NCBI GenBank assembly: GCA_016186425.1
Contig: JACPLR010000005.1
Span: forward strand, 27,312 to 59,311
Direction of reading: 5' to 3'
DNA length: 32,000 nt
Origin: Candidatus Pacearchaeota archaeon
GTDB taxonomy: Archaea; Nanobdellota; Nanobdellia; Pacearchaeales; GW2011-AR1
Positions 5,145 to 32,000 of this stretch are shown here, one piece after another. How positions within the stretch are numbered: position 1 is the first letter of the stretch; every line of letters starts with the position of its first letter. Under the pieces are notes generated by a model. The model saw only the letters and a program-made list of their open reading frames with translations, was not told the DNA's origin and ran no database searches. Both the position numbers and the translations under genes were made by a program.

Positions 5145-5224
5145 GGTAACTTTCACATTAAAATCAGGCAAGAATATGGTATGTTTTCAAAACAATTTTG
5201 AAAATACTGCAATAATTTTACCTG
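5145..5224 (+). repeat. intergenic repeat family, complete palindromic copy (X arm + inverted arm ending ...ttttacctg)
   Basis: caggcaagaatatggtatgttttcaaaa / ttttgaaaatactgcaataattttacctg form an imperfect inverted repeat. The copy contains the exact 18-mer tttgaaaatactgcaata. Confidence 0.8.
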
Positions 5225-15178: not shown

Positions 15179-15340
15179 GGAACTTACTCTAATAAATCAG
15201 GTAAAAATATGTTATGTTTTCAGAACAATTTTGAAAATACTGCAATAAACAAATTTAAAGGAAAGTTTGATAAAGAAAACCATTGGTTGTCTTTATTTTG
15301 AATCTCTACAATACTAAATTTCTTATTTAAAGAAATTTAA
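15179..15340 (+). repeat. composite intergenic repeat: X arm + 18-mer arm + hairpin element + Y module with terminal hairpin
   Basis: The 15179-15247 part matches 29748-29816. The 15258-15299 part matches 17858-17900. The 15296-15340 part matches 20503-20550 and 29798-29845. Confidence 0.8.
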
Positions 15341-15467: not shown

Positions 15468-15974
15468 TCACAGCCAAGGATTCCTGGCAATATGGCACGA
15501 GTTTACGCCATGATTCTTGATATAATCCTGATGGTAATATTCAGCAGCATAAAATTCACTGGCTTTTGTTATTTCTGTAACAATTTTTTTAGGAATTTTC
15601 TTCTGAATTTTTCTCATTGAAACTTCTGCTAGTTTCTTTTGTTCAGCATTATGATAAAATATCACACTTCTATACTGAGATCCAACATCTGGCCACTGCA
15701 TATTCATTGTTGTAGGATCATGGCTTTTCCAGAATACTTCAAGTAGTTTTTCATAACTTATTTTTTCAGAATCAAAAATAACTTCAACAGCTTCGGCATG
15801 GCCTGATTTATCTGAACAAACTTGCTCATAAGTTGGATTTTTTGTTTTTCCTCCAGTATATCCAACTCTTGTTTTAACAACTCCTGGCAGCTTCTGAAAC
15901 TGGTATTCAAATCCCCAAAAGCAACCTCCTGCAAATGTTGCTTTTTGCAGCATTTGTTTATTGGAGTTTTTCAT
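15468..15974 (-). CDS. msrA: peptide methionine-S-sulfoxide reductase
   Basis: GGCFWG active-site motif, YHQDY near the C-terminus, 168 aa. Confidence 0.9.
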   Translation of the reverse strand: MKNSNKQMLQKATFAGGCFWGFEYQFQKLPGVVKTRVGYTGGKTKNPTYEQVCSDKSGHAEAVEVIFDSEKISYEKLLEVFWKSHDPTTMNMQWPDVGSQYRSVIFYHNAEQKKLAEVSMRKIQKKIPKKIVTEITKASEFYAAEYYHQDYIKNHGVNSCHIARNPWL

Positions 15975-17825: not shown

Positions 17826-17857
17826 TTTTATATTTTTTATTTATTTGATTCATTTAA

Positions 17858-17900
17858 AAGGAAAGTTTGATAAAGAAAACCTTTGGTTGTCTTTATTTTT
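17858..17900 (-). repeat. stop-codon-abutting hairpin element (RNA sense: AUAAAGACAACC-AAA-GGUUUUCUUUAU followed by CAAACUUUCCUU)
   Basis: 12-bp stem with one conserved C.U mismatch at 17870-17896, 2 nt downstream of the rps12 stop (17899-17901). Near-identical copy at 15258-15299. Confidence 0.75.
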
Positions 17901-18988: not shown

Positions 18989-20422
18989 ATGATAACAGAC
19001 AGGGCAAAAAAATATATTTCAGGAGGATTAGCTCCTTTGTTAATTTATACTTTATCTGGTTGCGCGACTTTTAGAAATTTTGGCAATGAATTTAAATCAT
19101 TCAGAACTGCAGCAGAAGACCCGGTTCATGAGGTTTTTAGAAATGATGAAAATAAAAATTTAGAGCCTCCAGCAGTGAATGAGGCGACTCAAAAACTCCA
19201 TAATGATGAATCAATGCACGCAATTGCTCATCCATATGTAATCGCAAATAATAATAGGGCATATTTTAAAGGAGAAGTTCCAGAAATAAACAATGGAACA
19301 TTTGCAATACCTTCTATTAATGCCACTTATATTGATTTAGATGGGAATAACGACGGCAAGGGCGATGTTTTAATTTCATATCGCTGCAGAAATGCTGCTC
19401 CAGATATTGCAGCTATTCTTGCTAAATACCTCCCGCCAGCTCCCGAAGTTGATATAACTCCTTATCTTTCTCAAAATATGCTGTTATTTCGGGGACAGGA
19501 TGTTAAATTCGGAGAAAATTTTGGCTTAATTTCAAAATTAATTAATAATTTCGATATAGATCCTAAACAAATAAGAATAAGGTTAAAAATAGTGGAGTAT
19601 TTTAATGATAATACCTATGACAGGGATATGGCCTTGAAAATTTTGAAAAATGGTATGAGTGCTTTTAACTTATTATTGCCAAGCAACCCCCAGGGCAATC
19701 CTTTAACAACTGGAATTTCTGTTGATCCATTCATCAACAAAGATAGGAACGGAGATTTTACAATCTGGGGAAGAGCGCCTAACAAATGGACATATGAGGG
19801 GGCAATAAAATTCCTTGACAGCCATGGAAGAACAGAAACACTGTCAGATACAGATGTTGTTGTTTCAAATGGAACAACTGCAGAATTTAGAAATGTTAAT
19901 GCAGTGCCATATCAGCAAACTTCTTTAACTCCTGCAGCAGCAATTGTTATAGGAACACAATACCGGGAAGTCGGCCCGCAATTAAAATTATCCCCCTTCA
20001 CAAATGAAAAAGGTTTTACAACAATAAAATTGCTTGAAGCAAAATCAGGAGAATCAATTGCCTTAGTAGGCAAGGAACAAATACCTGTGTTTAGGGAAGC
20101 AAATCTTACATCTGAATTTTGTTTGCGAAATGGAACAACATATCTTATAGGAACATCAACAAACACCAGATATAAATCTGTTAATAGGGGCATTCCTGGA
20201 TTGAATAAAATTCCTTTGGTTAGGGGTGCTACAACATCAAGAGAAATTGAGAAAAATACTTCTGAACTGCTTTATTTCATGGAAGTTTTTGATATAGAGA
20301 GACAAGATTCTGTTGGAATGCAGGAAAGAATACAAGAGCCTTCAATTGCAGAATTAAACTCTAATCCAGTTAAGAAAGAAAAAAGTGAAAATAAAGGATT
20401 TTTCAAAAGGCTAAAAAGATAG
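18989..20422 (+). CDS. secretin-domain protein with lipoprotein-type signal peptide (477 aa)
   Basis: The N-terminus LLIYTLSGC is lipobox-like. The C-terminal half matches recalled secretin (GspD/PilQ/pIV) hallmarks. These are QIRIRLKIVEYFNDNTYDRDMAL, LSDTDVVVSNGTTAEFRNVNAVPY, YREVGPQLKLSPF, LRNGTTYLIGTS and NRGIPGLNKIPLVRG...SELLYFMEV. Confidence 0.55.
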   Translation: MITDRAKKYISGGLAPLLIYTLSGCATFRNFGNEFKSFRTAAEDPVHEVFRNDENKNLEPPAVNEATQKLHNDESMHAIAHPYVIANNNRAYFKGEVPEINNGTFAIPSINATYIDLDGNNDGKGDVLISYRCRNAAPDIAAILAKYLPPAPEVDITPYLSQNMLLFRGQDVKFGENFGLISKLINNFDIDPKQIRIRLKIVEYFNDNTYDRDMALKILKNGMSAFNLLLPSNPQGNPLTTGISVDPFINKDRNGDFTIWGRAPNKWTYEGAIKFLDSHGRTETLSDTDVVVSNGTTAEFRNVNAVPYQQTSLTPAAAIVIGTQYREVGPQLKLSPFTNEKGFTTIKLLEAKSGESIALVGKEQIPVFREANLTSEFCLRNGTTYLIGTSTNTRYKSVNRGIPGLNKIPLVRGATTSREIEKNTSELLYFMEVFDIERQDSVGMQERIQEPSIAELNSNPVKKEKSENKGFFKRLKR

Positions 20423-20675: not shown

Positions 20676-21119
20676 TTATTTCTCGTTCTCCTGCAGTTTC
20701 TTTATGACTTTTGCAGTTATATCTGTATATTTATCTGACCCCTTATCGCCTTTATCAACTACAATGTCATATCCGCCTTTTGCGGCAGATTCTACCAAGG
20801 CCTTATTAACACTAGTTAGCAATTGGCTTAAAACTCTATCTTTTCTAGTGTCATTTTCTTTCAATTTCGTTAATTCTTTGTAATACTTGCTCTCAGTTAA
20901 TGCCTTGCTATATTCTATATATGCCGGGTTTGCATATTTCGCATCTTTTTTTTCAACTCCATAACGAGTTACTGCTTCAGCTTTCTGCATATTGTCAAAT
21001 TGTACTCTTGGCCTATAACTTCCTTCGTCAAAAGAAACGCTTGGATAAATTCCAAAAACAGAACCAATTCCTACCGCGCTAGCAGTTAGAATATTTGCCA
21101 GCGATTTTCTTGATTTCAT
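20676..21119 (-). CDS. Skp/OmpH-like periplasmic chaperone homologue with signal peptide (147 aa)
   Basis: The N-terminal hydrophobic signal is LANILTASAVGIGSVFG. The C-terminus RVLSQLLTSVNKALVESAAKGGYDIVVDKGDKGSDKYTDITAKVIKKL follows the recalled OmpH/Skp C-terminal pattern (..AV..vA...g.DlVvD....y.....DIT..Vlk.l). Confidence 0.5.
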   Translation of the reverse strand: MKSRKSLANILTASAVGIGSVFGIYPSVSFDEGSYRPRVQFDNMQKAEAVTRYGVEKKDAKYANPAYIEYSKALTESKYYKELTKLKENDTRKDRVLSQLLTSVNKALVESAAKGGYDIVVDKGDKGSDKYTDITAKVIKKLQENEK

Positions 21120-21970: not shown

Positions 21971-24900
21971 TTACTTTTCCTTTTTCAGTGTCTTCCTGTC
22001 TTTTTCCCTCACTAAAGGCCCTGTAATTTTTACCATTAATCCAGGTAATCCAGTGCCAACAGGAACGGGCTGGTTAAGAATTATATTCTCAATGACACTT
22101 AACAATTCATCTTTTCCACCCTTAATTGTTGCATTAACAAAATGTTTTATAGGTGTTTCAAAACTTGCCTTAGCTAAGATACTGCTTTTTCTTGCAATTA
22201 TTCCCATTCTTGTCATCCCTCTTATCTCTCCATCAATTGTCATTGCATCAGCAACAAGCTTTAAGTGCCTTTCATCAATATCTAATCCCTGTGAACCAAG
22301 AACTTTTCTTATCTCATTCATTATAACCTGTCTTGCAGATTCAATTCCAAAAACATTTGCCATTTCATAAATATCATTTGTAATTGTTCTTTCAGGAGCA
22401 ACTCCCTTCACTTTTATTATCTCGGCAAGATTTGAGCCAGCTGTGAGTATTACATACCCTCTTTCTCTTTTAACAATTAAAACCTGCTTTATTCCTTTTA
22501 CTCCGGAAATTATGCTTTCCTTTAATTTTTCTTTAAGTTTGTATATTTCTTTAAAGCCAAGATCTGGAATACTTAAGATTATTGAATCATTTTTCACGCT
22601 TATTTTATATCCTTTTATTGCAATTTTTTCAGCAACAGTATTTATCGACATATGGGTGTGCCTTATTGCCTTGTTGTCTATTATAAATTCAATTTTTTTG
22701 TCAGAGAAATTTATTTTTGCCTCTGATAATATTTCTTTCAGCTTGGCTTCTTTTATTTTCTCTGCAAGAACCTTTGCGTCTTTTTCATCATTAAAATCTT
22801 TGTCTAAGTGAATTTCCATTGCAGGTGTTGACGGCATCTTTCTTGCATCAAATATTTCAATAAGCCGTGGAAGACCTAAAGTAACCTGCATTTCCTGAAC
22901 TCCGGCAAAATGAAATACATTCAAAACCATTTGTGTTGACGGCTCCCCAAAACTCTGTGCAGTAACAATTCCAATTGCTTCTCCAGGAGAAACTTCATTG
23001 TCAAAATGAGCTCCAGCAACATCAATTCCATCATCTCCATATTTAAATTGAATTATCTGGCCAACAGCATCTCTAACTGTCCCATCATACTCCACTCTCA
23101 AGTCCTGCAAAGCATTAGCAAGTCTTCTATATAAGTATCCTGATTTAGGTGTTCTTAGTGCAGTATCCATTAACCCATCTCTTCCTGAAATAGCATCAAA
23201 GAAAAATTCCTGCGGCTCCAACCCATTCATATAGGATGAATATACAAATCCATGAGCTTTTGGGGAAAGGTCATGCTGCTTGAAAGACGAAAGTGTTCTT
23301 TCATTATAGCCAAAATTAATCCTCTGAGACCACAAAGATTTCTGGCCGACAGAACACGCAATTTGAGTAATATTAAGGATATTTCCTCCAGCTCCAGACA
23401 TAATCATGTGATTTACAGGATTGTCTTCTGGAAATTCTGTTTTTACAGCCTTGCCTATTTTAGTTCTTATCTCATTTAATGTTTGAAGTATTTTAATTTC
23501 CCTTGATTCGTCAAGAGTTTTCCCAGGAATAATTTCAAGAGTTTCGTTATTGTAAGCATCAATTATTTCTTTTGTTTTTTCTTCACCGTCTTTTATTATG
23601 TCATAAGTTATTTTTTTTGTTTTTTCATTAACATTAATATCTTCAAGGGAAATAGTAAACCCTCTTCTTGAAAGATAATTTGTTCCAAGTGTAAAAGCTT
23701 TTTTTATTGCATCTATTGTTTCTTTTCTGCCAAGCTCCTTATCAACTTCTTTTGTGATTTTTTCATTTTCAACACCAAAAGTATATTCATGTGTTAAGTC
23801 TTTCTTTTCAATTTCTTGAGAAAGCGATTTGCTTATTGGAGGCAATATTTCCAAGAAAATATCCTTGCCATTAAAGGTTTTCTTGTCTTGTTTTATAATC
23901 ATTCCTGCATTAAAAAGAAGCTGTTGTGCTTCTGCTTTGTTTACATTGCTTAACCCTAAAAGATAATTCCCTGTGACAGCATCTGTAATTGTTCCTATTA
24001 ATGATGTATTATTTTTTGGGCTCATTAAGTTCTTGCTTACATCTAATAAAATTCTTGCTTCAGCCCTCGCTTCTTCAGTCTGAGGCACATGAACATTCAT
24101 TTCATCTCCATCAAAATCAGCATTATAGGGAAATACAACCGCCGGATGCAATCTAAATGTTCTGTAAGGAAGAACTTTTACATAATGCGCCATCAAGCTT
24201 CCTCTATGAAGTGAGGGATGTCGGTTAAATAATACAATATCTCCGTCCTGTAAATGCCTTTCAACAAAATATCCCGGCTTTAATTCTTCAATTATTTCTT
24301 TTTTAAGTTCAGGGGATATTTTCTTTCTTCTTCCATCAGGCCTTATAATATAATTTGCCCCCGGATAATGCTCTGACATTATCAGTTTTTTTAGATAATC
24401 AATATTAAGCGTTGTAACCTCTTCATTAACAGTAAGAACTTCTGCAATTTCATAAGGAACTCCAACTTCATTTATTTGTAATGAAGGATCTGGAGAAATA
24501 ACTGTTCTTGACGAGAAATTAACTCTTTTTCCAGCAAGATTATGCCTTATTCTTCCTTCTTTTCCTTTAATTCTTTCAGTAATTGTTTTTAGTGGCTGCC
24601 CGCTTCTGTGCCTGGCAGGTGGAATTCTTGATATAGTATTGTCAAAAAATGTTGTTACATGATATTGAAGCAAATCCCATAAATCATCAATAATAACTTC
24701 CGGAGCTCCTGCATTTAAATTTTCCCAAAGTCTTTGATTTGATCTTATTATATCTCCAAGCTTGTGAGTTAAGTCATCTTCGCTTCTCTCTCCAGATTCT
24801 AAAGTAATGCTTGGCCTTACAGTTACTGGAGGAACAAGCAAAACAGTAAGGATTCCCCATTCTGGCCTGAATGTTTCTGGATTAACTCCAATTAACCTGC

Positions 24901-25417
24901 AGTCATCATCTGTAATTTTTTCTAAAATTGCCCTTATTTCAGGAGGGAATATTCTTTTCTTTCCAAGCATGAATGATGTTGGTTTTTCAATCTTAATTTT
25001 TTCCTGAACAGTTTGGCAGTAATGGCATTTTTTAGCATCCTTTGATTTTTTCATTCTCTGTGCAGGGCTTAATTTCTTTATATTTTCCTCATCTAAAAGT
25101 ATTCTTCCGCAATTATTGCAAAAACTTCTTAAAAATGTGTAAACAATTGGAACATATTTTACATGCACAACAGGCCTTGCAAACTCAATGCTTCCTGGAT
25201 GCCCAAGGCATTCTTTTAATCTTCCTCCGCATGTTCTGCATTTTACTCCAGGATCAATAGCGCCAAGCCTCAAGTCCATTAATCCTCCATCTACCGGATA
25301 TCCATCCATATCATAAAGTTCTGGAGTGATTATCTTGGCACATGATATTTTTTTAATCTTCTCCGGGCTAAGCAGGCCAAATTTCAATGCTTTTATTTGT
25401 TTTTTTACAATTATCAT
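21971..25417 (-). CDS. rpoA: DNA-directed RNA polymerase largest subunit, A' and A'' fused in one 1148-aa ORF
   Basis: N-terminal zinc motif CRTCGGRLKECLGH, catalytic NADFDGDEMNVH, and bridge-helix region GRDGLMDTALRTPKSGYLYRRL. Then YGDDGIDVAGAHFDNEVSPGEAIGIVTAQSFGEPSTQMVLNVFHFAG (A''-type trigger loop) follows in the same frame. Confidence 0.93.
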   Translation of the reverse strand: MIIVKKQIKALKFGLLSPEKIKKISCAKIITPELYDMDGYPVDGGLMDLRLGAIDPGVKCRTCGGRLKECLGHPGSIEFARPVVHVKYVPIVYTFLRSFCNNCGRILLDEENIKKLSPAQRMKKSKDAKKCHYCQTVQEKIKIEKPTSFMLGKKRIFPPEIRAILEKITDDDCRLIGVNPETFRPEWGILTVLLVPPVTVRPSITLESGERSEDDLTHKLGDIIRSNQRLWENLNAGAPEVIIDDLWDLLQYHVTTFFDNTISRIPPARHRSGQPLKTITERIKGKEGRIRHNLAGKRVNFSSRTVISPDPSLQINEVGVPYEIAEVLTVNEEVTTLNIDYLKKLIMSEHYPGANYIIRPDGRRKKISPELKKEIIEELKPGYFVERHLQDGDIVLFNRHPSLHRGSLMAHYVKVLPYRTFRLHPAVVFPYNADFDGDEMNVHVPQTEEARAEARILLDVSKNLMSPKNNTSLIGTITDAVTGNYLLGLSNVNKAEAQQLLFNAGMIIKQDKKTFNGKDIFLEILPPISKSLSQEIEKKDLTHEYTFGVENEKITKEVDKELGRKETIDAIKKAFTLGTNYLSRRGFTISLEDINVNEKTKKITYDIIKDGEEKTKEIIDAYNNETLEIIPGKTLDESREIKILQTLNEIRTKIGKAVKTEFPEDNPVNHMIMSGAGGNILNITQIACSVGQKSLWSQRINFGYNERTLSSFKQHDLSPKAHGFVYSSYMNGLEPQEFFFDAISGRDGLMDTALRTPKSGYLYRRLANALQDLRVEYDGTVRDAVGQIIQFKYGDDGIDVAGAHFDNEVSPGEAIGIVTAQSFGEPSTQMVLNVFHFAGVQEMQVTLGLPRLIEIFDARKMPSTPAMEIHLDKDFNDEKDAKVLAEKIKEAKLKEILSEAKINFSDKKIEFIIDNKAIRHTHMSINTVAEKIAIKGYKISVKNDSIILSIPDLGFKEIYKLKEKLKESIISGVKGIKQVLIVKRERGYVILTAGSNLAEIIKVKGVAPERTITNDIYEMANVFGIESARQVIMNEIRKVLGSQGLDIDERHLKLVADAMTIDGEIRGMTRMGIIARKSSILAKASFETPIKHFVNATIKGGKDELLSVIENIILNQPVPVGTGLPGLMVKITGPLVREKDRKTLKKEK

Positions 25418-25423
25418 TTTTTA

Positions 25424-25666
25424 TTAAATTGATTTTATTGCATAAATTTCTTTTTTTGAATTATACCTTATATTAAAATTAACATCATCAATTTGTAATT
25501 TAGATGGTTCTTGTATAGCGCTATGTAATAATTTATATTTATCTAGATATCCTTTATGCTTTTGATAATCTTTAAGTCCAAAATAAGCTATGCATATTAA
25601 AGCAGAGATAAAAGTAATTATCCTTAAACTTAATTCCAACTTATTTTCTTTAGTAGATTTTTTCAT
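25424..25666 (-). CDS. hypothetical small membrane protein (80 aa)
   Basis: One hydrophobic helix (LSLRIITFISALICIAYFGL). Its stop lies 6 nt before the rpoA ATG. Confidence 0.35.
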   Translation of the reverse strand: MKKSTKENKLELSLRIITFISALICIAYFGLKDYQKHKGYLDKYKLLHSAIQEPSKLQIDDVNFNIRYNSKKEIYAIKSI

Positions 25667-25684
25667 TTTGTTTTTCTCATATTA

Positions 25685-25882
25685 TTATTTACTATAATAT
25701 TTTCCTTTCCAAGTCGCTTCTGCTTGACATCCTCTTATTGCTAAATATGCTGGATCAATTACCGGTATTCTGGATTTTGTTGACATATCTCCAATTCCGT
25801 CTATCTCTTCTCCCCTTATAATTACTTCTTCATCTAAAGCATTTTTCAATTTATCTTCTTCACTTATTTTTCTTTGTTTCAT
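25685..25882 (-). CDS. hypothetical small protein (65 aa)
   Basis: ORF only, located between rpoB and rpoA. Confidence 0.3.
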   Translation of the reverse strand: MKQRKISEEDKLKNALDEEVIIRGEEIDGIGDMSTKSRIPVIDPAYLAIRGCQAEATWKGKYYSK

Positions 25883-25923
25883 TTTTTTTATTTTATTTTT
25901 TATTTTTTCCTGTAGGAGATGTC

Positions 25924-25950
25924 ATAAGAAGAACCTATGGTTCTTTTTAT
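25924..25950 (-). repeat. hairpin element (RNA sense AUAAAAAGAACC-AUA-GGUUCUUCUUAU) abutting the ancestral rpoB stop codon
   Basis: Same architecture as 17870-17896. It overlaps the last base of the TAA at 25950-25952. Confidence 0.6.
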
Positions 25951-26117
25951 TATTCCTCATATTTGTTTTTTAATTCAAATCCCGTCGCTATATGTAATCC
26001 AAGTAATTCCTCCGCAAGTAATTTAAATGCATATGAAACTTCAACATCTTCAATCTCTGTTGAATTGCATACAGGGCAGTAAGTTTTATTCCTTAAAGTA
26101 TCTTTAACTCCCAGAGC
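25950..26117 (-). pseudogene. rpoB: stranded in-frame C-terminal 55 codons of rpoB
   Basis: Hand translation after the TGA gives ALGVKDTLRNKTYCPVCNSTEIEDVEVSYAFKLLAEELLGLHIATGFELKNKYEE*. It contains the second CxxC and the conserved YAFKLL..EL motif of the RpoB C-terminus. It has no start codon of its own. Confidence 0.8.
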
Positions 26118-26160
26118 TCAGTAAGTTTTATTCCTTAAAGTATCTTTAACTCCCAGAGCT
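26077..26160. repeat. perfect 42-bp tandem duplication (2 x cagtaagttttattccttaaagtatctttaactcccagagct)
   Basis: The two copies, 26077-26118 and 26119-26160, are identical base for base. Confidence 0.97.
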
Positions 26161-29100
26161 CCGCACTTTGAGCAAACATGAATTATAACTTTGTCAGAAT
26201 CATATCTTTCCTTCAATAATAATGAAGCTCCGTGTGCAACTAATGCCTGCTGCTCCATTTCTCCTAATCTTAATGCCCCTCCTCTTGCTCTTCCCTCAAT
26301 AGGCTGTCTTGTAAGCAATGCAACTTTTCCAGATGCTCTTGCATGCATTTTATTGCTTACCATATATTTTAATTTCATATAATACATATCGCCAATGTAA
26401 ATTTTTGCTTCCATTTGTTTTCCCGTAATGCCATTATACATTGTTTCTTTTCCATCATACCTGAATCCCAAGTCTTTCAATTGATTTTCCATTTCCTCAA
26501 CATTAATTTTCTCAAAAGAAGTTCCGTTCATTATCTCGCCCTTCAGGCAGCCAATTTTTCCGCTAATTAATTCAAGCAAATAACCTACAGTCATTCTTCC
26601 AGGAATACCATGGGGATTGAAAATAACATCAGGTCTTATGCCTCTTGAAGTGAATGGAATGTTTTCTTCAGGCACAATAGCCCCGATAACTCCTTTCTGC
26701 CCGTGAGCTGTTGAAAATTTATCTCCTAATTCTGGAATTCTAAGATCTCTTGTTCTTACCTGAACAATTTTATTTCCTTCCTCATCTAAAGTTACAAAAA
26801 CTCCGTCTATAATTCCTTGCTCTTCCTGCCTTATGACAGAGCTGCTCTCTTTTTTAGCTCTTATATTAATATCTTTTGCTTCTGACAGGAATTTTGGAGG
26901 AGAAACTTTTCCAATTACAACCTCTCCAGCTTTCAAGCTCGCTTCGGGATAAACAATTCCATCATCTTCAAGATATCTGTAAGAATCCTCTGTCCTATAG
27001 CCAGCAATGTCTTTTGTTGGGATTATTATCTCATCAGCCAATCCCCCTGCATAATTTAACTCAACACTTGTGTAAGGCCTGAAAAAAGTGCTTCTTCCAA
27101 AACCTCTTTCAACACTTGATTTATTTACAACAATTGCATCTTCCATATTATATCCTTCATAAGTCATGACTGCAACAACAACATTCTGCCCAGATGGATA
27201 AACATTCATTGCATCATAAACAAAACTTCTTACAATTGGCTGTTGAGGATAGTGGAGTAAGCTTACATCTGTATCAACTCTTACAAGATAATTTGCAGCA
27301 TACAATCCAAGTCCTTGTTTCTGTGTCTTGCTTCCTCTAATTAATCTAGAAGACTGGTCATGATTTCCAAAACTTACTAAGCTTGTTATCGGGCCTAAAA
27401 ATGCAACCCGGTCAATTTCCATATGTGTATGTTCAGAATTTAATTCAGAATTATTCAGCGCAACAAAAGCATTTTCTTCTTCAGAAGCATCAATGTATTC
27501 AATTACTCCCTGTTTTATCAAATCATCCCACTTTAATTCGCCTTTTTTAATTTTCTCAATATGTTCTTCTCTTAATCTAGGAACTCTATTATCAGCAATT
27601 ACTAATGGCCTTAAAACTCTTCCAGTATCTCCGTATATAACTATTATTTTTAATTCAGTATTGTATCTTATGCTTAATTCTTCTGGAAATTTTTGCTGCC
27701 TTCTTTTTTCTCTTACTTCTGAAATAAATTTATTGTAATTGTCAACGGCCCCGATAAACATTCCGTTGAAAAATACATCAATGCCGCTAATTTCTTTGCT
27801 CAATCCTAATTTTTCAAGTTCTTTAATAATACTTTCCTCATCCATTATTAATCTTGAAGAAATTTTTGACATAATTGAAAGATTTTTTCTCAGCCCAATT
27901 TCTGTTCCTTCGGGAGTTTCAATAGGGCAGAACCTTCCAAAATGCGTTGGATGAAGTGTTCTCGCCATAAAATTTGTCTGTTCTCCTGGCAAAGTGCTGG
28001 AAACTTTTTGCAATTGAGAAACAATTGAAAGATAATTTGTCTTGTCCATATTTTGTGTTATGCCCTTTTTCTCTCCAATCCAGCTTCCTGTTGCAATTGC
28101 TGATTTTATTCTATGTGAGAATAAAGTTGATTTAGCAATTGTCTTGATGCTGTAAAATTTTTTTCTCTTTATTGTTTTTTGAAGGGAGTATTTTATATCC
28201 CTTACAAGGATGTTTAAATTTACCCTGAACAAGTCAGCAAGCAAATCCCCTGAAAGCCTGACACGCTTGTTTGCGTAATGGTCCTTGTCAACCTTGAGTT
28301 TAGGATTTTCCTTGAATATTAAAAATTGCCTTATTAATTTGCATATGGTAATTGCTTTGTCAATTCTTTTTTCCTTTTTTAATCCAATATGGGGAAGCAG
28401 ATAAGAATCAAGCCTTTGCTTTATCCTGTCAAGAATTTCTTTTTTAGTTCCCTGCACAGAAGTTTTTTCAGCAATGCTCATCATCGCTTCTTCAGAATTT
28501 GAAACTTTTGCAAATTCATAAAGGTTAACAATAACATTATCCGTCTCTTTTCCAATATATCTCGCAATATCCGCTTCTTTTAACATGCCAAGAGCTTTCA
28601 TTAAAATTATCGCAGGAATATTCTTGAATCTTGAAAATGAAACTTCAATTACCCCATCGCTTGATTCTGTAATAGTTATTGGAATTCTGTAAGCGCCTCT
28701 TGAAGAGAATAATCTTAAAGTTGGCTTGTCTTTAATATTTTCAATAAATGGCTGGTTGGCTGCAAGATCTTCTGTCATTATCATAATTCTCTCGTTTCCA
28801 TTAACAATAAAATAGCCTCCGGGGTCTTCAGGGTCCATATAATTATTTTCAAGTTCTTCTTTGCTCACCCCGCATAAGTTGCACGGCTTGCTCTTTACCA
28901 TTATCGGCATTCTCCCAATTTCAACTTCCTGATTTTCAATTTGCCCGTCTTGTTTTATTGATATTTCTAAAAATAAAGGGGCAGAATAGGTTAGGTTTCT
29001 TATTCTTGCTTCAGCGGGAGTCATTGGGGTTGTTGATCCATCTGATTCAATCACATTTGGCTTTTGGATTTTAATTTTTCCGAGCTTTATTTCAACCTCG

Positions 29101-29267
29101 TCCTGCTCAATATTTTCAGAAATTTCATCAACAATTTCCTGCATTCTTTTTTCTATAAAATTATTAAAAGAAGTCAGGTTAGATTCAACTAAAGAATTCT
29201 CTGAAAGATATTTCTGAATAACTATATGGTCATCATTCTTAAGTTTAAGTTGTATGCCTCTGCCCAT
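26118..29267 (-). CDS. rpoB: DNA-directed RNA polymerase subunit B (unsplit), terminated prematurely by TGA at the duplication junction
   Basis: Conserved RpoB blocks are present (GRFCPIETPEG, NMEDAIVVNKSS, HGQKGV, RPDVIFNPHGIPGRMTVG, GGALRLGEMEQQAL). It ends ..CSKCGALGVKDTLRNKTY*. Confidence 0.92.
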   Translation of the reverse strand: MGRGIQLKLKNDDHIVIQKYLSENSLVESNLTSFNNFIEKRMQEIVDEISENIEQDEVEIKLGKIKIQKPNVIESDGSTTPMTPAEARIRNLTYSAPLFLEISIKQDGQIENQEVEIGRMPIMVKSKPCNLCGVSKEELENNYMDPEDPGGYFIVNGNERIMIMTEDLAANQPFIENIKDKPTLRLFSSRGAYRIPITITESSDGVIEVSFSRFKNIPAIILMKALGMLKEADIARYIGKETDNVIVNLYEFAKVSNSEEAMMSIAEKTSVQGTKKEILDRIKQRLDSYLLPHIGLKKEKRIDKAITICKLIRQFLIFKENPKLKVDKDHYANKRVRLSGDLLADLFRVNLNILVRDIKYSLQKTIKRKKFYSIKTIAKSTLFSHRIKSAIATGSWIGEKKGITQNMDKTNYLSIVSQLQKVSSTLPGEQTNFMARTLHPTHFGRFCPIETPEGTEIGLRKNLSIMSKISSRLIMDEESIIKELEKLGLSKEISGIDVFFNGMFIGAVDNYNKFISEVREKRRQQKFPEELSIRYNTELKIIVIYGDTGRVLRPLVIADNRVPRLREEHIEKIKKGELKWDDLIKQGVIEYIDASEEENAFVALNNSELNSEHTHMEIDRVAFLGPITSLVSFGNHDQSSRLIRGSKTQKQGLGLYAANYLVRVDTDVSLLHYPQQPIVRSFVYDAMNVYPSGQNVVVAVMTYEGYNMEDAIVVNKSSVERGFGRSTFFRPYTSVELNYAGGLADEIIIPTKDIAGYRTEDSYRYLEDDGIVYPEASLKAGEVVIGKVSPPKFLSEAKDINIRAKKESSSVIRQEEQGIIDGVFVTLDEEGNKIVQVRTRDLRIPELGDKFSTAHGQKGVIGAIVPEENIPFTSRGIRPDVIFNPHGIPGRMTVGYLLELISGKIGCLKGEIMNGTSFEKINVEEMENQLKDLGFRYDGKETMYNGITGKQMEAKIYIGDMYYMKLKYMVSNKMHARASGKVALLTRQPIEGRARGGALRLGEMEQQALVAHGASLLLKERYDSDKVIIHVCSKCGALGVKDTLRNKTY

Positions 29268-29272
29268 TTATG

Positions 29273-29494
29273 TTAAATAACCACCCTGTAATAAAAAAAG
29301 CTCTCCTCGCCATTAGAAGATTTTCTTTCAATTTTAATTATGTCTCCAATTTTTATATCCTGGCCTAGTTGCAGCAATGCTGGATCAGTTAATTTTATCT
29401 TCGGCAGTTGTGTTTTAGAAATATTAAGTTTTTGAAGTAGTTCATCTTCTTCTTTTTTGTTTATTTTAGAATGTTTTGGCTGGAGAATATGCAT
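29273..29494 (-). CDS. rpoH: DNA-directed RNA polymerase subunit H (Rpo5)
   Basis: 73 aa with LPKIKLTDPALLQLGQDIKIGDIIKIERKS....YYRVV. Immediately upstream of rpoB. Confidence 0.85.
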   Translation of the reverse strand: MHILQPKHSKINKKEEDELLQKLNISKTQLPKIKLTDPALLQLGQDIKIGDIIKIERKSSNGEESFFYYRVVI

Positions 29495-29747: not shown

Positions 29748-29845
29748 GTAACTTACTCATTAAAATCAGGTAAAAATATGGCATGATTTCAAAACATTTT
29801 TGAAAATACTGCAATACTAAATTTCTCTTTTTAGGAGAAATTTAA
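29748..29845 (+). repeat. archetypal full copy of the intergenic repeat family (leader gtaacttactcattaaaat + X arm + 18-mer arm + Y hairpin)
   Basis: gtaacttactcattaaaatcaggtaaaaatatggcatgatttcaaaacatttttgaaaatactgcaatactaaatttctctttttaggagaaattt. Confidence 0.85.
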
Positions 29846-30049: not shown

Positions 30050-30204
30050 GGACCCATAGCTCAGCCTGGTTAGAGCACTGGCCTTTTAAGAATAAAGACA
30101 ACCTAGTGGTTTTCTTTATGAGTTTTCCCTTGAGAAAGCATCTCCCTTAAATAGGAAGAGAAAAAGAAAGCCAGGTGTCGGGGGTTCGAATCCCCCTGGG
30201 TCCA
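30050..30204 (+). tRNA. tRNA-Lys (anticodon UUU) with ~80-nt intron after position 37
   Basis: Hand fold gives acceptor GGACCCA/TGGGTCC (7/7), D arm GCTC-AGCCTGGTTA-GAGC, and anticodon stem CTGGC/GCCAG with loop CTTTTAA. The variable region is GTGTC, the T arm is GGGGG-TTCGAAT-CCCCC and the discriminator is A. The intron spans ~30089-30168. No CCA is encoded. Confidence 0.85.
30092..30119 (+). repeat. copy of the stop-proximal hairpin element inside the tRNA-Lys intron
   Basis: ataaagacaacc-tagt-ggttttctttat. Both 12-nt arms are identical to the transcribed-sense arms at 17870-17896 and 15270-15296. Confidence 0.85.
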
Positions 30205-30526: not shown

Positions 30527-30625
30527 TTAAATTTCTTCTAAATAAGAAATTTAGTGTTGTCTGGATTCATAATATTTTTGAAAATACTGCAATACTTTTA
30601 CCTAGTTATATATTATACTCTCTAA
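30527..30625 (-). repeat. repeat family copy (Y hairpin aaatttctt-ctaaat-aagaaattt, then exact 18-mer arm ending ...cttttacctag)
   Basis: The reverse complement aligns with the X arm + Y module layout. It contains the exact tttgaaaatactgcaata on the + strand. Confidence 0.7.
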
Positions 30626-31106: not shown

Positions 31107-32000
31107 CTATAAAGTTTCACACTTATCTCCAATACAAGCATATTCTCTTGATCCGGATGTCTGATCATCCCTTTCATAACACATTATTTGGGAGAAATCA
31201 ATTTTTGGTAATGTTGAAACCATTTTATTATATTCTTCTTTGTTTATTTCTTCCCAAGGAGCTAGTGGATAAACATTATCATCTCTTGGAAGGAAAGCCA
31301 AACCCCCGATAATGTCCCAATTTTTATACACCCATTGGCCAGTATCTATCCACTCATCATTTCCAATATATATAGTAACAGAAGGGTTATGTTCTGTGTA
31401 ATTTGTCTTAAATCTTTTCCATATTTCTAACTGATCTATAGCACTTAAATCTTTTCTTAATAAAGAGTGTTTTGGAGATTCGATAGGAAATGGCAAAACA
31501 TAGGTACTGGCAGTTCCAAATTCTTGATTTACTTCGGGAGAATAAGGATATTTTTGATCTTTTAACATATGAAATAAAGAATCATTGGCAGATATCCTGA
31601 TATTTTGTCTGTAATATTCAGACCATCTAGTATGAATTCCAGAAGAAGAATTAACTAATTTAGATAAACTTCCAGAAGGCTTGACACAGGTTATGCATGT
31701 TGAAGGATTTATATCAAATTTCTTGGCATAATACCTATTAACTTCGATTGCATGATCTTTTAATTTTCTCAAAACTTCAGGATTTTTCAATATGGGGGAA
31801 TCCATAATGCCTGTTATAGAAACTCCAAGAAGCCTTTCTTCCTCACAATTTTCTTTCCATTCGTTAGATAGGTATGGAAAATAAGTTAACATTGATTGAT
31901 AAGTTCCAAGTATAGTTGCAACTCTTACTTTATCCATTAATGTTTCTTCAGTATCATCAGGCCTTGCAACAACCTCTGTTAAATTGCAGAATTGCTTTGA
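31107..32000 (-). CDS. ribonucleotide reductase, C-terminal part (probably class II, B12-dependent); continues past the window edge
   Basis: The frame stays open upstream of the listed Met to position 32000. It reads SKQFCNLTEVVARP, the RNR active-site C-N-x-x-E context. Further motifs are CVKPSGSLS and a C-terminal Cys pair CIGDKC. The class assignment is tentative. Confidence 0.7.
   Translation of the reverse strand, partial: SKQFCNLTEVVARPDDTEETLMDKVRVATILGTYQSMLTYFPYLSNEWKENCEEERLLGVSITGIMDSPILKNPEVLRKLKDHAIEVNRYYAKKFDINPSTCITCVKPSGSLSKLVNSSSGIHTRWSEYYRQNIRISANDSLFHMLKDQKYPYSPEVNQEFGTASTYVLPFPIESPKHSLLRKDLSAIDQLEIWKRFKTNYTEHNPSVTIYIGNDEWIDTGQWVYKNWDIIGGLAFLPRDDNVYPLAPWEEINKEEYNKMVSTLPKIDFSQIMCYERDDQTSGSREYACIGDKCETL

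Follow-up and report, generated by a model that had tools for sequence, protein, structure and literature searches.

The window, by which we mean the whole 32,000-nt stretch of DNA analysed, contains an rpoH-rpoB-rpoA neighbourhood, in which the gene for RNAP subunit B is interrupted close to its 3′ end by a TGA stop codon (Table 1). Pfam profiles assign complete Rpb2 domains 1-6 to the deposited ORF, and the RNA_pol_Rpb2_7 domain is split at the interruption, with profile positions 1-48 of 87 matched in the ORF and positions 43-84 of 87 matched in the orphan tail that follows it. The frame of the tail stays open for 55 codons, the next in-frame stop after the TGA being the TAA at 25950-25952. 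According to the original prediction, these codons carry the second CxxC and the YAFKLL tail of the subunit, and both the translation of the frame and the Pfam match confirm this. There is no in-frame ATG, GTG or TTG in the orphan tail. Relative to a repaired protein, obtained by deleting one of two tandem 42-bp copies, the deposited ORF is without the last 42 residues; removal of one copy restores a CxxC-x14-CxxC zinc ribbon together with the SYAFKLL tail, and the repaired RpoB aligns with its relatives over residues 1-1091.

Table 1. Features of the rpoB locus in the window, with coordinates as window positions
Feature	Coordinates	Strand	Remarks
rpoB ORF as deposited, 1049 aa	26118..29267	-	Identical to MBI2628675.1; Rpb2 domains 1-6 and first half of domain 7
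Orphan tail, 55 codons and TAA	25950..26117	-	ALGVKDTLRNKTY for a second time, CPVC, and the conserved C-terminal SYAFKLL..ELKNKYEE
Inferred true rpoB, 1091 aa after deletion of one 42-bp copy	25950..29267	-	Ordinary archaeal RNAP subunit B
Upstream copy (in reading direction) of the 42-bp unit AGCTCTGGGAGTTAAAGATACTTTAAGGAATAAAACTTACTG	26119..26160	-	Codes for ALGVKDTLRNKTY and 2 bases of the following codon
Downstream copy of the 42-bp unit	26077..26118	-	100 % identical to the upstream copy; single copy in relatives and in the Logan contig
Junction codon TGA	26118..26120	-	TG are the last two bases of copy 1, A is the first base of copy 2
7-bp hairpin AAGAACC-ATA-GGTTCTT	25929..25945	-	Just past the double stop TAA TAA of the tail
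rpoH (Rpb5 C-terminal domain)	29273..29494	-	Directly upstream of rpoB
rpoA, single 1148-aa ORF, Rpb1 domains 1-5	21971..25417	-	Downstream of rpoB

The interruption lies at the junction of a perfect tandem duplication. Direct string comparison shows that 26077-26118 and 26119-26160 are identical at 42 of 42 bases, and TRF reports a single array at 26077-26161 (period 42, 2.0 copies, 100 % matches, score 170), in agreement with the identical adjacent 42-mers that had been claimed for these positions. The period-42 identity extends over 26077-26161, corresponding to one further base of microhomology, and no other perfect tandem duplication with a period between 15 and 400 bp exists in the 32-kb window. 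There are no Ns at the duplication. Specifically, the minus-strand junction reads TAC-TGA and the frame reads ...HVCSKCGALGVKDTLRNKTY, stop, ALGVKDTLRNKTYCPVCNSTEIEDVEVSYAFKLLAEELLGLHIATGFELKNKYEE, stop, with the TGA occupying the position of a TGC codon (Cys, the first Cys of the second CxxC) in the single-copy sequence. Reading of the minus strand therefore verifies the predicted conversion of TGC to TGA at the copy-copy junction. The duplication amounts to a 14-codon insertion, and rpoB aligns over 1-1091 in one frame with the closest compared locus, whose remaining shared genes are all intact in the window.

Downstream of the tail, the original prediction placed a terminator-like hairpin directly against the TAA. 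A 7-bp hairpin is indeed present, and a similar hairpin also follows the rpoB stop in relatives, but there is no T-run at 25929-25945 and the terminator scan made no call there. Two small ORFs with no Pfam match, at 25685-25882 (minus strand) and 25424-25666 (minus strand), lie between rpoB and rpoA. The 65-aa ORF of this pair is well conserved in relatives (57 aa in the closest compared relative, L001; MKQRK.SEED.LK.ALD...IRGEEIDGIGD..), and the 80-aa ORF is variable (34 aa in L001). Archaea usually carry separate A′ and A″ genes for rpoA. In the window rpoA is undivided, and the same arrangement is found in relatives, with an rpoA of 1158 aa in L001.

Two near-identical records were recovered from a large protein collection. 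One of them, MBI2628675.1 ('Candidatus Pacearchaeota archaeon', 1049 aa, from a 59,312-bp contig), matches the window ORF at every residue, indicating that the duplication is part of the sequence deposited in GenBank and not a later addition. In a sister genome, which is probably from the same project as the window, the corresponding protein MBI4156877.1 ('Candidatus Woesearchaeota archaeon') has 1091 aa, carries a single copy of the repeated segment, and shows a single substitution (V to L) relative to the repaired window protein. Exact look-up in a gene-position index found neither the deposited 1049-aa protein nor the sister 1091-aa protein.

To place the deposited ORF among its homologues, we used an alignment of the 120 best RpoB homologues, which share 68-100 % identity and include the window's own record. 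A 14-residue spacer between the CxxC pairs, followed by 37-38 residues after the second pair, is present in 113 of the 120, and the tail is kept in all 119 other homologues, with the SYAFKLL...ELKNKYE segment nearly invariant. The window's own record is the only one of the 120 that ends at ...RNKTY; another homologue of 1049 aa (P0035, 82 % identity) is cut at both contig ends. The zinc-binding cysteines are lost in five of the 120, all of which retain the full tail. Among 84 related loci, 83 have an intact rpoB tail with the 14-residue spacer, and a stop is found in none. Comparison of rpoB with related genomes, a check proposed along with the original prediction, thus gives a uniform answer, as no relative's RpoB ends at the window's stop in the 120 proteins and 84 loci.

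Four loci at 91-92 % protein identity each have one DNA copy of the unit, with 4-5 differences from the window inside it; between the two window copies there is no difference. A protein-based scan of genome contigs returned 80 relatives, the closest at 94 % identity, all of which align over 215-216 residues with no insertion. In genome and metagenome contig collections, from which the species is absent, an exact 48-mer flank pattern gave 0 matches. Searches with 216-aa and 108-aa C-terminal sequences gave no 100 %-identical fragments from other assemblies. The repaired C-terminus aligns through to the ends of the solved subunits 4QIW_B, 2PMZ_B and 1I3Q_B. The repaired protein resembles archaeal Rpo2 (Thermococcus kodakarensis, 4QIW chain B; Saccharolobus, 2PMZ chain B) in its seven Rpb2 Pfam domains, its CxxC...CxxC arrangement and its SYAFKLL segment, and its gene has the usual neighbours, in the order rpoH-rpoB-rpoA; the deposited ORF stops after residue 1049. 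In a Pacearchaeota/Nanoarchaeota sub-clade of RpoB (P0036, P0039, P0042, P0044 and P0045), three of the four zinc-ribbon cysteines have been lost (VAKKSG...CPITGD), with the spacing and the tail retained.

The strain itself is represented in an independent assembly. Exact look-up found window proteins in the Logan assemblies of SRA runs SRR12113420, SRR12113422, SRR12113424 and SRR12113430. Five aligned Logan contigs from three of these runs (SRR12113422, SRR12113424 and SRR12113430) show 0 mismatches to the window over ~11.7 kb, indicating that those three runs contain the same strain as the window, and an rpoH look-up places the strain in the fourth run, in which the contigs are too short to reach the duplication. 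The duplication site is covered by a contig from one of the four strain-bearing runs, SRR12113422. This contig (L089; SRR12113422_67541, 1567 bp) corresponds to window positions 26318..24710 and agrees with them at 100 % identity, the sole difference being that the 42-mer is present once. Translation of the 3′ end of rpoB in L089 runs unbroken to ...RNKTYCPVCNS...KYEE, followed by the stop codon.

We simulated de Bruijn graphs of the single-copy and the duplicated allele at k = 31, presumably the value at which Logan operates. For the single-copy allele the graph collapses to one 1567-nt unitig, which equals L089 exactly in length, and any duplicated allele, alone or mixed, gives unitigs of 43, 59, 187 and 1397 nt. 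The 29 31-mers specific to the junction (for example AATAAAACTTACTGAGCTCTGGGAGTTAAAG, coding strand) are absent from all Logan contigs. Furthermore, there is nothing on record for the 51-aa partial product of the exit unitig that is expected if the duplicated allele is present in the reads, which is a weak negative. Because L089 is intact at 1567 nt and junction 31-mers are absent, the junction in SRR12113422 is either absent or too rare to survive graph cleaning. Reads with a single copy had been named as the observation that would overturn the prediction; their nearest equivalent, the Logan assembly of SRR12113422, has one copy, a result that holds for the assembly of that run. The central claim, that the conserved C-terminus is cut off the organism's RpoB, is not supported, in view of this single-copy contig, the sister genome, and the lack of any relative with the same end.

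Taken together, these data favour a local assembly error in a draft metagenome-assembled genome as the source of the extra 42-bp copy, the real rpoB being single-copy and coding for 1091 aa, a reading to which we assign a probability of roughly 0.75. An assembly or polishing artefact was among the possibilities originally listed, and it is the assembly artefact that the single copy in the independent assembly and in the sister genome favours. Most plausibly, two overlapping contigs would have been joined in scaffolding with the full overlap left untrimmed, and the truncated 1049-aa MBI2628675.1 would be a consequence of that error. The base after the duplication, in coding orientation, is the wobble position of a Cys codon, which is TGC or TGT among relatives; conjecturally, a contig may end at this position, just after the duplication, by way of a strain-level branch. 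The length of the duplication would fit such a join, as the final default k of MEGAHIT, presumably 141, less 99 (k-1 at what we take to be the IDBA-UD default maxk of 100) equals 42. Contig names of the form 'k141_' are seen among related records.

The provenance of the window is consistent with this explanation. A neighbouring accession, MBI2047441.1, is on JACOYM010000090.1 of isolate NC_groundwater_179. The MBI2 accession block, together with the 100 % identity to the SRR121134xx runs and not a record title, leads us to infer that the block, and hence the window, belongs to BioProject PRJNA640378 (He et al. 2021, PMC7906910). In that work, each filter was assembled with MEGAHIT at default settings and the contigs were then scaffolded by IDBA-UD (PMC7906910). 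A study from the same laboratory describes local assembly errors as prominent in IDBA-UD output, the common ones including sequence duplicated at the joins in scaffolds and repeats with an incorrect copy number, counts 13 local errors in one 1.13-Mb genome, and notes that such errors carry incorrect genes into databases (Chen et al. 2020, Genome Res, PMC7111523). The window is similar to those cases in having a perfect duplicate of flanking sequence at one scaffold point that results in an incorrect protein-coding gene in a public record; it differs in that the duplicates described there are separated by Ns or appear as wrong repeat counts, whereas the window duplication contains no Ns. Two further scaffolds of the same project (L034 and L038; 21 kb) contain no comparable duplication. 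A point against an assembly error is that a MEGAHIT contig is read-supported at k = 141, so that a duplication inside a contig, and not at a scaffold join, would need real reads.

A real and very recent tandem duplication in the population of one sample, either sample-specific or at intermediate frequency, could also have entered the consensus, undecayed, as an allele that cripples or inactivates RpoB. We regard this as unlikely, even though the duplication stands in the deposited scaffold and a genuine 84-bp array is within reach of an assembler that uses k = 141 on 150-nt reads. In related loci totalling 1.3 Mb, one perfect tandem duplication of 27-84 bp is seen about every 170 kb, a rate in which some artefacts may also be counted, and the identical copies and undecayed tail are as expected of a very young event. 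However, the Logan assembly of the identical strain (SRR12113422) is without any junction k-mer, the sister genome is single-copy, and a null allele would not be expected to rise to consensus frequency in an essential single-copy gene. The boundary microhomology is only 1 bp, and hence nothing points to slippage.

If the duplication were real, it could be tolerated in that the ribosome passes the TGA, either by near-cognate read-through, which would give a zinc-ribbon loop 14 residues longer, or by a peptidyl-tRNA-Tyr hop that starts at TAC-TGA and lands on the identical TAC 42 nt further on, with the wild-type protein as its product. The tail is in frame and intact, and the tandem duplication itself supplies both the matching take-off and landing codons and a stop that immediately follows take-off, in the manner of phage T4 gene 60 bypassing, which likewise has identical take-off and landing codons (here TAC), a gap of similar size, and a stop after take-off. 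Unlike gene 60, the window has no significant stem-loop and no conservation of the arrangement, which is absent from the same strain elsewhere, and a codon match is automatic in any tandem duplication. RNA structure around the junction is no better than that of shuffles (z = -0.01). Moreover, TGA is a genuine stop in the window, which argues against both forms of stop passage: in-frame TGA occurs 0 times in 7600 codons (26 ORFs) compared with 589 off-frame occurrences, Trp is encoded by 48 TGG codons, and three other ORFs end in TGA, including msrA (15468-15974), whose Pfam domain is complete (1-153/153). The claim that TGA serves as a stop elsewhere, with msrA as the example, is upheld by this census. 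There is no suppressor tRNA in the window, the sole tRNA being Lys(UUU), for which the anticodon loop CUUUUA identifies a tRNA-Lys and not a suppressor, and no SECIS or other Rfam element reaches the gathering threshold in the window apart from the single match to the tRNA at 30050-30204. Neither any relative nor the same strain in SRR12113422 has the arrangement, indicating that it is not a selected device. We therefore consider passage of the TGA by the ribosome highly improbable. The specific scenario of a real allele in one groundwater sample, with cells surviving by a hop or by TGA read-through, is more improbable still; if true, it would represent spontaneous, unselected gene-60-like bypassing in an archaeon.

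A real duplication could alternatively leave a truncated 1049-aa RpoB that functions without the second CxxC and the C-terminal tail. The five of 120 homologues without zinc-binding cysteines do indicate that the zinc site is dispensable in part of the clade, but those same five have a complete tail, the SYAFKLL..ELKNKYE segment varies hardly at all in the 119 others and aligns to the ends of solved archaeal and eukaryotic RNAP subunits, and no RpoB among the 120 proteins and 84 loci ends before the second CxxC. A functional truncated subunit is thus barely credible.

Two further candidates were rejected. Reassignment of TGA as in codes 4 or 25, or its use for selenocysteine, is ruled out by the TGA census, the end of msrA, and the Rfam search. 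A natural B′/B″ split is ruled out by the tail without a start codon, by the wrong split site, and by the absence of any relative split there. In the split rpoB (B′, B″) of methanogens and haloarchaea, the break is near the middle of the subunit and each half has its own start codon. The window shares with these genes a subunit B coding sequence in two pieces, but its break is 42 residues from the end, and the tail, having no ATG, GTG or TTG, cannot be a separate gene. The B″ label that GenBank gives to these RpoB proteins is an annotation name only.

The truncation of RpoB is best regarded as not a real feature of the organism, whose rpoB is almost certainly ordinary. Through what would be a 42-bp local error, a truncated version of an essential protein (MBI2628675.1, 1049 aa) has entered GenBank and nr. 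Scaffold-level artefacts in draft metagenome-assembled genomes can mimic truncation, recoding and split genes, and if 42-bp duplications recur across scaffolds made with MEGAHIT plus IDBA-UD, many mis-annotated genes might be picked out at once by a simple scan.

Related DPANN drafts have perfect tandem duplications too, which measure 35-84 bp and may be real or artefactual, at L007 4520-4633, L020 6842-6953, L027 2621-2691, L058 11153-11259, L064 1699-1868 and L077 2447-2551. The duplication in L007 begins 15 nt past the rpoB stop.

The window contains several other features of note. A 477-aa ORF at 18989-20422 (plus strand) clearly matches the Pfam Secretin profile PF00263, with 67.5 bits (cut-off 27.5) and E = 1.4e-18. 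In a DPANN archaeon, this channel domain of the bacterial outer membrane is unexpected. The ORF is within the archaeal rpoA-nusA-rps12 cluster, adjoins an ORF at 20676-21119 with a weak OmpH-like match, and is conserved at 87 % identity in relatives (L001 19039-20475). An intergenic element of ~60 nt occurs four times on the plus strand, at about 5150-5215, 15185-15248, 29760-29818 and 30560-30600, with the core TTTTGAAAATACTGCAATA and exact shared stretches of 23-25 nt, and could be a promoter or small-RNA motif. A hairpin motif, AAAGAAAACC(A/T)TTGGTTGTCTTT, is present at 15257-15300 and 17857-17900 (plus strand), after rps12 and near msrA, in each case preceded by a shared AAAGGAAAGTTTGAT. 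It resembles the hairpin after the rpoB stop (25929-25945) and may be a lineage-specific 3′-end signal.

The tRNA-Lys(UUU) at 30050-30204 (plus strand) has an intron of ~81 nt at the canonical position; it is found by Rfam with 56.5 bits and was missed by ARAGORN. Near the end of the window, the C-terminal part of an RNR gene (31107-31937, minus strand) is only 24 % identical to the syntenic RNR of the closest compared relative (L001 6166-8394), whereas the dUTPase beside it is 71 % identical to that of L001, a difference which suggests that the RNR gene may have been replaced.
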